Shown here: positions 21,172 through 23,653 of the stretch, piece by piece
Layout: each line of letters starts with the position of its first letter
How positions within the stretch are numbered: the first letter of the stretch is position 1
Source: a virus
Lineage: Duplodnaviria; Caudoviricetes
IMG/VR virus record: IMGVR_UViG_3300020042_006920
Coordinates: 1-29,350 of that record
Length of the DNA: 29,350 nt
Strand: one strand, 5' to 3'
Notes under the pieces: generated by a model
Told to the model about the DNA's origin: nothing
The model's database searches: none
The model's input: the letters and a program-made list of their open reading frames with translations, nothing else
Made by a program: the position numbers and the translations under genes

Positions 21172-21468
21172 TTAAAAGTATTTAAAACTTACTGGGAAGC
21201 TTTGCCACAGTTGCTTATCATTAAAATAATCAGTTAATATAAGGTGGGCCTCCCATCGTTTAGCATCACCCATATTATCAAATTCTTTTATAAGATTTAC
21301 TTTTATATCTTTATTACCTTCTAATTTAATCTTTTTGTAAAGATATTTACTATCTGATTCTTTTTCTATCTCTTTAAAGTGTTGTCTTTTTCTACGATTA
21401 AAGTTATTAGTATAACCAATATACCTTCTAACCCCATCAATTAAGATTTCATAAACACAATAAATCAT
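21172..21468 (-). CDS. GIY-YIG family endonuclease
   Basis: CVY...RYIGYTNNFNRRKRQH and a conserved Glu in AKRWEAHLI. Confidence 0.8.
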   Translation of the reverse strand: MIYCVYEILIDGVRRYIGYTNNFNRRKRQHFKEIEKESDSKYLYKKIKLEGNKDIKVNLIKEFDNMGDAKRWEAHLILTDYFNDKQLWQSFPVSFKYF

Positions 21469-21689
21469 TTGTTTTTTGGAACTGATTTTAAAAGGTTATA
21501 ATGTTCTTCACTAACCATTATAAGTGTATCATTATAAGTTACAAATTTTGTTTTACCTGCTTCTATGTTTTCATTATATGTTAATAAGTCCATTACAAAC
21601 TCTCTACCATTAAGGTCTATATTAATTACTGCTGTTGGTAGTTGTTGAGACCAACCTCCTTCTTTCCATTCTAAATCATTTATACTCAT
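21465..21689 (-). CDS. Hypothetical protein
   Basis: 74 aa, translationally coupled to both neighbours. Confidence 0.6.
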   Translation of the reverse strand: MSINDLEWKEGGWSQQLPTAVINIDLNGREFVMDLLTYNENIEAGKTKFVTYNDTLIMVSEEHYNLLKSVPKNK

Positions 21690-23653
21690 TATTTAATAAA
21701 CTTTTTATATTGTTCGTAGTTCTCTATTCTTGCCTCAGCAATCTTAAAGTAATCTCCGTCCATCTCCATGCCACAAAATCTAAACCCTTCTAATTGTGCG
21801 GCTATACCAGTTGAACCAGAACCCATAAAAGGGTCAAAGACAATACCATTTGGTGGTGTTACTAATCTAACAAGATAAGCCATAAGAGCAACTGGCTTAA
21901 TAGTTGGATGTGTGTTCTTCTTTTTAGCATTTAATCTTTCTGGTTCTTCACAAACGCATTGACTATTTTTTGGTGCTAAAAATTGTTTATTACATTTACC
22001 ACATTTATCTTGTGCACCGTGTGGCATCTCTTGTTCTTCAAACTCATCTAACCCCATATTTCTTTCTTGTTTAGAAACTTTTGCTTGATAGAAAAATCTA
22101 TCGCTTTTTATATTCTCTGTGGTATTCGTTATGGTGTTCTCTATTATCGTCTCTCCACTCTTTAAGTTTTCTTCCAGAACATAACTTACAATAGGCACTA
22201 ATACCTCTTGATTTGTTTTTATAGAACTCACTAACGCATTTTGATTGCTTACAATCTGAACATTCAATATATTCTCTTCCGTCAATAAGTGTGACTGCTT
22301 TTCGTCTATCATCAGCGTGAAGTTTCCAATGGTCGTCTTTGTGTAAGCATTCAAGATTGTTAAGTTCATTATTGAGTTTGTTTTCATCTTTGTGATGGAT
22401 ATGGTGGTCATCAGGTATTGAGCCGTTGTGTTGTTCCCATACAACTCTGGCTTCTGGCATATACTTTCTCTTGCCTGTTTTAAGGCATCTGACGCTTCTA
22501 TATTCTCTTCCGTGTTGTATTCTTGTGTAGTTAAGGATTTTATATTCCATAGTATTATATTATTTTCTTTATATATAAAAAAATCCTCTGTCCCTCCACC
22601 TTTTATCTGTTGAAAATAACGACTTGCTCCACCTTTATCATTATATTCATAATTTTTGTTTCCACCACCAAATGTCTTACCACCTGGCTTACCATCTTTC
22701 TTTTTACTATAATCACTTACACCACTTTGTTCGTCCATCAAACGACAAGGACACATAGGATTAGTGTGTATATCACCTTTATCATTATAATTATCTGGTG
22801 CTGCGCCTTCTTTACTACCAAAATTACCAACTGAATTATAATCGTGTTTAGTTCTATCTCTACTACCACTTCTTTTAACTTCACCTTTTTCACCTTTAAT
22901 AACCTCATCACATAAACACTCTAATATGATGTTGGCTGGAAATCTACCTTCATTTAGTTCAGCAACCATACCGCTATTATGTCTTCCACCCTCAAACATA
23001 GTATCACTATCTTTGTTTATATCAACTTTCATAGTTCCACCTTCTGTTCCAACACGACAACCATCTATATTTATACCACCAGTTCCCCATCTTAAAACAT
23101 TCTCAGCAACTGACTTCTCACTTAGTGGCTTACGAGCAACACAGATAGGTTCATTTGCTGGTTTAAGAGCAGTTCCCCAACCTTCCCACTCAGAGTTTCC
23201 TTTTGTTATATCTGGGTGTGTTGTTCTTCCATTTTGTGAGGCACCAGCACTTCTTCTCTCAGCCTCATCACTTGCTTTATATGGGCTTTCGCATACCCAC
23301 TCTCTTTCATTACCTTGTAATTTATCAACTGCCTTTCCTATGTTATGACTTTTAGGAAATCCACTTCCATATAACCACATAATTTGGTCTCTAATCTCAA
23401 AACCAGCATCTTCTATATTCACAACCATTCTGTGATATGTTCTTGTGCCACCAAAACTGAGAACGTGGCCTCCTGGTTTTAGAACTCTAAGGACTTCTTT
23501 CCAGAACTCAACAGATGGAACATCATAATCCCACTTCTTACCCATAAAAGATAAACCGTAAGGTGGGTCTGTTACGATTGAATCAATTGAATTGTCTGGT
23601 AGTTTTTGTAGTGATTTGATGTTGTCTCCCAACATTAGTTTAGTTTTTTTCAT
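21689..23653 (-). CDS. DNA methyltransferase, N6-A/N4-C beta class, carrying a 174-codon in-frame insertion
   Basis: TDPPY catalytic motif, RVLKPGG, YGSGFPKS, GRFPAN, HPTIKP and the DPFMGSGSTG SAM-binding motif. Confidence 0.9.
   Translation of the reverse strand: MKKTKLMLGDNIKSLQKLPDNSIDSIVTDPPYGLSFMGKKWDYDVPSVEFWKEVLRVLKPGGHVLSFGGTRTYHRMVVNIEDAGFEIRDQIMWLYGSGFPKSHNIGKAVDKLQGNEREWVCESPYKASDEAERRSAGASQNGRTTHPDITKGNSEWEGWGTALKPANEPICVARKPLSEKSVAENVLRWGTGGINIDGCRVGTEGGTMKVDINKDSDTMFEGGRHNSGMVAELNEGRFPANIILECLCDEVIKGEKGEVKRSGSRDRTKHDYNSVGNFGSKEGAAPDNYNDKGDIHTNPMCPCRLMDEQSGVSDYSKKKDGKPGGKTFGGGNKNYEYNDKGGASRYFQQIKGGGTEDFFIYKENNIILWNIKSLTTQEYNTEENIEASDALKQARESICQKPELYGNNTTAQYLMTTISITKMKTNSIMNLTILNAYTKTTIGNFTLMIDEKQSHLLTEENILNVQIVSNQNALVSSIKTNQEVLVPIVSYVLEENLKSGETIIENTITNTTENIKSDRFFYQAKVSKQERNMGLDEFEEQEMPHGAQDKCGKCNKQFLAPKNSQCVCEEPERLNAKKKNTHPTIKPVALMAYLVRLVTPPNGIVFDPFMGSGSTGIAAQLEGFRFCGMEMDGDYFKIAEARIENYEQYKKFIK
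22098..22550 (-). CDS. HNH endonuclease (HNH_3-like) with a C-terminal CxxC...CxxC zinc finger, nested in another frame of the methyltransferase gene
   Basis: RVVWEQHNGSIP..HHIHHKDENKLNN.L.NLECL....H...H; CSDC...YCKLC; has its own ATG, stop and upstream promoter-like motif. Confidence 0.9.
   Translation of the reverse strand: MEYKILNYTRIQHGREYRSVRCLKTGKRKYMPEARVVWEQHNGSIPDDHHIHHKDENKLNNELNNLECLHKDDHWKLHADDRRKAVTLIDGREYIECSDCKQSKCVSEFYKNKSRGISAYCKLCSGRKLKEWRDDNREHHNEYHREYKKR
22100..22621 (-). mobile_element. Putative splicing-independent homing-endonuclease insertion (522 nt)
   Basis: Separates GGAS from RFFYQAK of the methyltransferase; length is a multiple of 3; contains only a promoter-like motif plus the HNH ORF. 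Confidence 0.6.
22569..22594 (-). promoter_or_regulatory. Internal promoter-like motif for the nested HNH gene
   Basis: GGGACAGAGGATTTTTTTATATATAA, 21/26 identical without gaps to the motif at 23675..23700. Confidence 0.65.

Follow-up and report, generated by a model that had tools for sequence, protein, structure and literature searches.

An HNH endonuclease gene lying out of frame in an in-frame insert of a phage DNA methyltransferase gene whose reading frame stays open

In IMG/VR virus record IMGVR_UViG_3300020042_006920 (positions 1 to 29,350), a gene for an HNH endonuclease lies out of frame inside a gene for a beta-class N6/N4 DNA methyltransferase (methylase). The window, by which we mean the whole stretch analysed, is the entire 29,350-nucleotide (nt) contig, has a G+C content (GC) of 27-41% and, judged by its terminase, portal and collagen-repeat genes (Pfam), is a tailed phage. 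We consider it probable that the HNH gene is the cargo of a 522-nt homing insert that is read through, unspliced, as a loop of 174 residues, the methylase (host) frame being kept open by selection. The in-frame insert, the out-of-frame HNH open reading frame (ORF), "empty" alleles without the insert and near-identical inserts in divergent hosts are direct observations, and the steps that would join them are as follows. The HNH would be transcribed from a promoter-like motif in the leader of the insert and translated from its own ATG; it would cut empty GGASR/FFYxAK alleles (the slash marks the insertion point) in co-infection, and repair would copy the insert and some 20-50 nt of flanking DNA with it. 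Ribosomes would translate the insert as the 174-residue loop while selection holds the methyltransferase frame stop-free; the loop would stand where a flexible region, joining the catalytic half to the S-adenosylmethionine (SAM)-binding half, ends, and the methylase would retain enough activity for carriers to persist. The features at the centre of this proposal are:

21689..23653, minus strand: beta-class N6/N4 DNA methyltransferase ORF, 654 amino acids (aa), open across the insert (Pfam N6_N4_Mtase, E 4e-32)
22097..22618, minus strand: mobile insert, 522 nt or 174 host-frame codons, between GGASR and FFYQAK, missing from empty alleles
22098..22550, minus strand: HNH endonuclease ORF, 150 aa, the host frame being HNH +1 (Pfam HNH_3, E 5e-13; PHROGs HNH)
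22551..22618, minus strand: leader, 68 nt, A-rich ahead of the HNH ATG, host-frame reading YFQQIKGGGTEDFFIYKENNIIL

The two frames are offset by 1103 nt, and each host codon therefore consists of positions 2 and 3 of one HNH codon and position 1 of the next. As the first-pass annotation had stated, this offset allows host-frame stops only from NTA followed by A or G, or from NTG followed by A, so that synonymous choices at the 14 leucine, isoleucine and valine codons standing before a purine suffice for an open frame. Its count of these codons was reproduced exactly: among 22 codons, the 14 before a purine are CTT (6), ATT (3), GTC (2), GTT (2) and CTC (1), with no NTA, and the 8 before a pyrimidine are ATA (2), TTA (2), GTA (1), ATC (2) and CTT (1). 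The accompanying probability of about 0.002 was likewise recovered (Fisher p=0.0021), but it is partly circular, because an open frame forces zero NTA before purines, and it is inflated by the pooling of the three amino acids. When the gene's own codons were shuffled within each amino acid, the frame was open in 1894/200,000 cases (0.0095); when the HNH was recoded synonymously with the codon usage of the 27 other window genes, it was open in 0/200,000, with a mean of 7.6 stops. The context-aware analytic probability of an open frame is 2.3e-7 with window codon usage (log10 P = -5.6 with the methylase's own). Avoidance of NTA before purines was seen neither in the 27 non-overlapping window genes (580/1141 before purines vs 250/486 before pyrimidines) nor in the GIY-YIG gene at 21172-21468 (8/14 vs 1/6), and among 150-codon windows of other genes 0/4556 were open in +1, the longest open run being 118 codons. 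Neither outcome that the annotation had named as refuting its claim occurred.

Subsequently, we examined relatives of the HNH. From 153 HNH-query loci, 84 were entered after duplicates, long in-frame fusions and edge fragments had been removed by hand, and scoring further dropped near-duplicates and ORFs outside 300-1200 nt, leaving 72 distinct relatives. Stops in the +1 frame were distributed bimodally: none in 16 relatives, 2-34 in 56, and exactly one in 0. All 16 stop-free relatives are nested in longer open host frames, 7 of them methylases and 9 intein-domain ORFs (8 of the 9 with terminase matches), and the other 56 showed no context effect in their NTA codons (460/1086 vs 271/692, p 0.20). 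An open host frame is a trait of the family. Recoding, control windows and the pattern among relatives together uphold the earlier view that the open frame is unlikely to be chance, and that selection keeps the methyltransferase frame stop-free is supported by the analytic value, the recodings and the bimodal relatives.

Leader, HNH ORF and a single further base make up the insert, whose last 4 nt contain the HNH stop TAG. The host-frame query returned 11 protein clusters (the window's own included) and the HNH query 2; across the 11 clusters insert identity is 66-100%, all in the same methylase and at the same site, and insert length is 173-175 aa in 11/11 full-length filled proteins. Empty alleles read GGASR/FFYxAK. 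Among 79 loci of a methylase scan, 59 have the pattern ..RFF-Y..K.. without extra residues, one has a 14-aa loop and one a 163-aa insert, while 18/79 did not fit the pattern. The leader motif DFFIYKE is present in 11/11 full-length filled proteins, and the sole length variant of the leader is a whole codon. Two further parts of the insert are:

22601..22624, minus strand: 5' junction SR-YFQQIK, which repeats the downstream exon DR-FFYQAK in degenerate form (sequence comparison)
22179..22262, minus strand: C-terminal CxxC...CxxC of the HNH (C97, C100, C121, C124), invariant in 13/13 aligned HNHs

Since the insert starts with a degenerate copy of the downstream exon, its boundary can slide by about 6 nt. 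In locus L001 the junctions are SRFFFNAK (5') and SRFFYVAK (downstream); R(Y/F)F is kept at the upstream copy in 11/11 filled proteins, and FF at the downstream copy in only 6/11. The HNH active-site residues are intact, H52, H53, N65, H74 and H78 being invariant in 13/13 aligned relatives, and the cysteine pairs are likely to form a zinc-binding DNA-recognition module. A PDB sequence search with the HNH gave no relevant match.

The interrupted enzyme has the motif order of the beta class, with motif IV before the variable region and motif I after it, and the insert is located in the variable region:

23558..23569, minus strand: DPPY, aa 29-32, intact (translation), which we take to be catalytic motif IV
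21815..21835, minus strand: DPFMGSG, aa 607-613, intact, downstream of the insert (translation, alignment), presumably SAM-binding motif I

Its PDB sequence matches are CcrM, RsrI and PvuII. In filled alleles whose sequence covers them, the catalytic motifs are intact; that motif IV decays where the insert is present was considered and rejected, DGPY or DAPY in place of DPPY (6/79 loci of the methylase scan) being present in insert-free alleles too. A structure model of the empty allele L070 (mean predicted local distance difference test (pLDDT) score 72; matches to CcrM, M.BceJIV and RsrI) places the insertion site after a low-confidence stretch, aa 258-302, and just before a strand at 303-305. 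This weak part of the model fits a tolerant loop. Short extra loops are found at the same site in the empty relatives L114 (14 aa), L149 and Lilac.

Evidence for mobility comes from inserts that are more alike than their surroundings. The insert is 100, 99.4 and 98.9% identical to those of P0004, P0005 and P0006, whose flanks are 50-60% identical upstream (230 aa) and 69-72% downstream. Contigs at the locus were compared for 7 different runs out of 24 listed. The 30,786-nt X11 contig matches positions 22045-22640 with 4 differences and diverges on both sides, the 843-nt X8 contig matches 22034-22640 with 13 differences, and in X21 one piece ends at 22639 and one joint skips a net 522 nt; run X14 gave coverage of the flank only. 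DNA identity thus ends about 20-50 nt beyond the insert, and two flanks are common to divergent filled alleles:

22619..22640, minus strand: upstream flank, putative co-conversion tract; the X8, X11 and X21 contigs stop matching at 22639-22640
22045..22096, minus strand: downstream flank (FFYQAKVSKQERNMG), conserved exon and putative co-conversion tract; matched down to 22045 by the X11 contig and to 22034 by the X8 contig

Filled alleles (11) and empty ones (14) are interspersed in a quick tree built on 130 conserved columns, with 8 changes against an average of 8.5 after shuffling, and a single clade of the filled alleles was rejected (approximately unbiased test, p-AU 0.019); in a larger quick tree all 12 filled rows lie inside one 24-row group together with 12 empty rows. 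Such a pattern is expected of homing with short co-conversion tracts, in which the HNH would do the cutting. Record 3 of run X1 was rejected as an empty allele, as it stops at the junction, and run X22, which is probably DNA, as a source on expression; no RNA run was listed as carrying the locus. The locus is carried mostly by freshwater metagenomes (15/21 runs with a word share of at least 0.22). Two DNA-pattern scans found zero new loci, a search of genome contigs found distant HNHs only, and the ESM Atlas gave no usable match to the host-frame insert, a result that says nothing on novelty or absence.

Expression of the HNH could start from within the insert:

22568..22592, minus strand: candidate internal promoter, a promoter-like motif made up of GAC, 14 nt and TATATAAA that lies 25-27 nt ahead of the HNH ATG

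TATATWWA has 23 copies on the minus strand, of which 10 fall 12-50 nt ahead of a start, in zones that make up 4% of that strand. It is present in 9/30 upstream zones (HNH start included) against a shuffle mean of 1.7, with 1/5000 shuffles reaching 9, the motif having been chosen after the sequences were viewed. GAC-N14/15-TATATWWW precedes the methylase start too, and the leader and the methylase upstream region share GGGAC...TTTTT.ATATATAA. In 11/11 proteins the promoter-like motif is read in the host frame as DFFIYKE. A sigma-70 promoter scan gave 8 sites vs 14.6 in shuffles, none useful, and no terminator was found in the promoter and terminator scan. Furthermore, TATATTTA, often with GAC 15 nt upstream, stands before several structural genes on the minus strand (28950, 18394, 15538, 9590, 5861 and 3597) and is a candidate phage promoter.

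We also compared alleles for ongoing selection. The window and L001 show 56 differences in 447 nt, on average 0.27 at each HNH-synonymous site but 0.09-0.18 at each HNH-nonsynonymous one; the HNH frame is therefore under stronger purifying selection. Taken singly, the 56 differences create 0 host stops, and HNH-only simulations with 60 substitutions expect 2.5-3.2 (P(0) 0.03-0.07). In the low-depth X21 contig an NTA stands where the window has CTT followed by G, and the frame is still open because the next base has also changed, to C. HNH-synonymous transitions were observed in 6/41 cases where they would change the host residue radically and in 33/101 where the change would be milder (p 0.02, as deduced from 8 protein sequences rather than from DNA); stratified by direction, the p value becomes 0.10 with one reference and 0.02 with the other. 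This only hints at constraint on the residues of the host frame themselves.

Several observations weigh against the proposal of a selected, read-through homing insert. The pairwise test is weak: for the window and L001, ongoing selection against host stops is only suggestive. The 11 full-length filled proteins were retrieved by the host-frame query and are open by ascertainment. The joint that represents the empty allele in X21 has only 21 letters on its short side, and a clade of the four alleles with near-identical inserts was not rejected (p-AU 0.155, 130 columns). An AlphaFold model of the filled protein was uninformative (pLDDT 36) and was not used. P0015 starts where the leader's T-run has slipped, P0018 breaks off some 18 codons after the HNH overlap begins, and one near-identical filled allele is present in four records that each carry a frameshift at a different position (P0021; P0022 and P0024; P0023 and P0012; P0025, P0026 and P0015). 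Different slips in near-identical copies may be sequencing errors or real decay, and look like errors; if real, they would make the filled methylase dispensable. A search for shorter forms gave 6 proteins, four of which start inside the insert and may be contig edges.

These frameshifted records bear on the alternative that survives best, although we regard it as rather unlikely. It grants homing and a selected open frame, yet supposes that the frame protects ribosome traffic along the message, by way of coupling to the gene downstream and avoided polarity, and not methylase activity, so that the filled methylase may be dead. Besides the frameshifts, it would be favoured by the overlap of the methylase stop with the next ATG and by the annotated split forms in the family (ShiLan gp65 and gp67, see below). 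The intact catalytic motifs of the filled alleles that include them count against it; stop avoidance alone does not predict that radical host changes should be the rarer, as they are (6/41 vs 33/101), and the gene before the terminase has its own promoter-like motif.

Less probable still is an open frame that is inherited and not maintained. The HNH lineage would long have been stop-free, having become so for example in terminase inteins, where read-through is essential, and would spread faster than stops build up in a dispensable methylase. That 9/16 nested relatives lie in intein-bearing ORFs in the same phase would agree with this, as would recent homing and the weak pairwise test. Against it, the insert remains open at this one methylase site although host-frame identity has fallen to 66%; its length changes are whole codons, one of them in the leader and outside the HNH, and a further six HNHs, more distantly related, have open frames at a different site in methylases.

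We hold removal of the insert to be very improbable, whether through RNA splicing that has gone unrecognised, through ribosome hopping or through recombination of its degenerate end repeats, with the open frame serving as a back-up. The insert's 5' end is like the downstream exon, which the ShiLan paper had raised as an intron-like feature (PMC11855218), but an efficiently spliced insert would not need 174 open codons, and none of the expected elements was found. An Rfam scan of the locus gave no intron and one chance-level small RNA match (E 0.47), and folding of the insert showed no unusual stability (z -1.3), and an intron was rejected on these grounds; a ribozyme core is unlikely because only 68 nt, too short for one, lie outside the HNH ORF. 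An intein was rejected as well, no Hint or intein domain being found in the insert (Pfam, NCBIfam) and the junction nucleophile being unconserved (D, N or S before the downstream R across filled alleles); the intein-like Ser...Gln/Ser of L001 is not common to other alleles. The enzyme is instead likely to be read straight through without splicing, since the frame is stop-free far beyond chance. Finally, an alternate frame open by chance is in effect already refuted: the risky codons are few (14) and the own-codon shuffle leaves the frame open about 1% of the time, but the recodings (0/200,000), the analytic probability, the control windows (0/4556) and the bimodal family pattern all speak against it.

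A hidden HNH of this design was published in 2025, at another site of the same enzyme family: the ShiLan domain is an HNH encoded out of frame within an actinophage methylase gene whose own frame is open (PMC11855218), and the available text of a second paper describes its spread as patchy (PMC9957025). Our element resembles it in many respects. The methylases belong to the same family, ShiLan gp65 being homologous in blocks of 44-72% identity; the phase is the same (host = HNH +1; offsets 1730 and 1103, both 2 mod 3); both inserts have a length that is a multiple of three, an open host frame and an HNH stop in the last four bases; in both the 5' end resembles the downstream exon, and intron or intein features are absent; and both are patchily distributed, with near-identical inserts in divergent hosts. 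They differ in site, GTALK/P (window aa 164/165) lying about 180 residues upstream of GGASR/FFY (aa 345/346), and in their HNHs, which are 24% identical over 79 aa. Zinc fingers flank the ShiLan HNH, which starts at a GTG 18 nt in, whereas that of the window has one C-terminal CxxC pair, an ATG start and a 68-nt leader with a promoter-like motif. Our phage is AT-rich, a setting in which chance is far less likely to leave a frame open, and is found mostly in freshwater runs. Identity with the ShiLan domain was therefore rejected, on site and on the 24% identity of the HNHs, and a shared site, suspected from the proline in Lilac RFFPVFK, was rejected by site comparison. A tblastn search for the HNH at E 1e-5 found no match among 50,697 phage records, ShiLan included. 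By sequence comparison, the element is one that works like the ShiLan domain but is separate from it, with a new site and a candidate internal promoter. In ShiLan (L239:4786-8059) gp65 stops short of the SAM-binding half, and gp67, annotated as a "DNA methylase", is a short gene of its own behind it, so that a split here may be tolerated by the family.

Inteins whose homing endonuclease lies out of frame or antisense have also been reported, in the available part of a preprint (bioRxiv 10.1101/2025.01.02.630785), as endonuclease VII, antisense LAGLIDADG and VSR types, its HNH type being in frame. As far as described there, they share with our element an endonuclease in another frame and an open host frame, and HNH relatives are nested likewise in terminase inteins; those inteins leave by protein splicing, whereas no splicing domain is present here. 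No further paper on this design was found in the literature covered, subscription journals and supplements lying outside that coverage.

Another kind of arrangement is found in phage Aeh1, in which the homing HNH gene mobE reportedly splits nrdA into genes-in-pieces whose two polypeptides reassemble. That system likewise places a homing endonuclease within a coding sequence and has no splicing element, but here the host frame is continuous.

The searches returned further nested genes. HNHs in the +1 frame of intein-bearing ORFs, mostly terminase large subunits, occur in L010, L013, L016, L024, L025, L026, L167, L183 and L206, in all of which the frame of the intein has to stay open. In a Clostridia genome bin, L236:1883-2620 encodes a 245-aa HNH in the +2 phase of a terminase-gene intein; GC is 30% and the host frame has no stop. 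A second group of HNHs lies in +1 in N6/N4 methylases just before HPTxKP, in loci of 33-64% GC (L004:2884-3339, L149:1183-1641, L150:2159-2623, L153:1062-1496, L162:54-446 and L186:2249-2629). At the same site of the methylase family (between RFF and Y), L091:1991-2479 carries an unrelated cysteine-rich HNH-like ORF in +1 with no Pfam match, and L133:2285-2857 is a NUMOD3/HNH_3 gene in the +2 phase of a methylase, upstream of the GGASR site. In L145:171-2474 a single methylase ORF runs without a stop through two different HNH genes, both out of frame (1262-1714 and 1835-2269), the latter with the same TATATAAA-type motif ahead of its ATG. P0027 is a filled methylase with apparently two more long inserts, one that ends at NEPICLARK, near the ShiLan site, and another before GRFPAN. 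Methylase matches spanning 1.8-2.8 kb and split over more than one ORF (L077, L082, L098, L110, L111, L118, L122 and L132) suggest other interrupting elements in this family. In the window itself, a free-standing GIY-YIG gene (21172-21468) lies between the methylase and the terminase region, and the methylase is directly followed by a small ORF:

21465..21689, minus strand: 74-aa ORF, its ATG overlapping the methylase stop (TAATG), possibly translationally coupled to the methylase

The ShiLan papers left two questions, namely whether selection acts on the open host frame and by what route the hidden HNH is expressed, and no codon-level test appears in their available text (PMC11855218; PMC9957025). 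Here chance is excluded (about 2e-7) in an AT-rich phage, and a candidate internal promoter is visible. Moreover, the natural empty and filled alleles form a clean pair for asking whether a homing endonuclease can live unspliced in a coding gene. As gene callers report only the methylase frame, nested nucleases of this kind are easily missed. A broader reading, which we offer tentatively and think somewhat doubtful, would see a self-contained, splicing-free homing cassette made up of a phage promoter, a +1 HNH and a host-frame "shadow" polypeptide under selection at the amino-acid level, which would let an active methylase bear it, with one HNH clan moving between terminase inteins and bare loops of this methylase family, the latter accepting cassettes at three or more sites, sometimes two at once (L145). 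If this is true, new protein domains would arise from selfish DNA by such a route.

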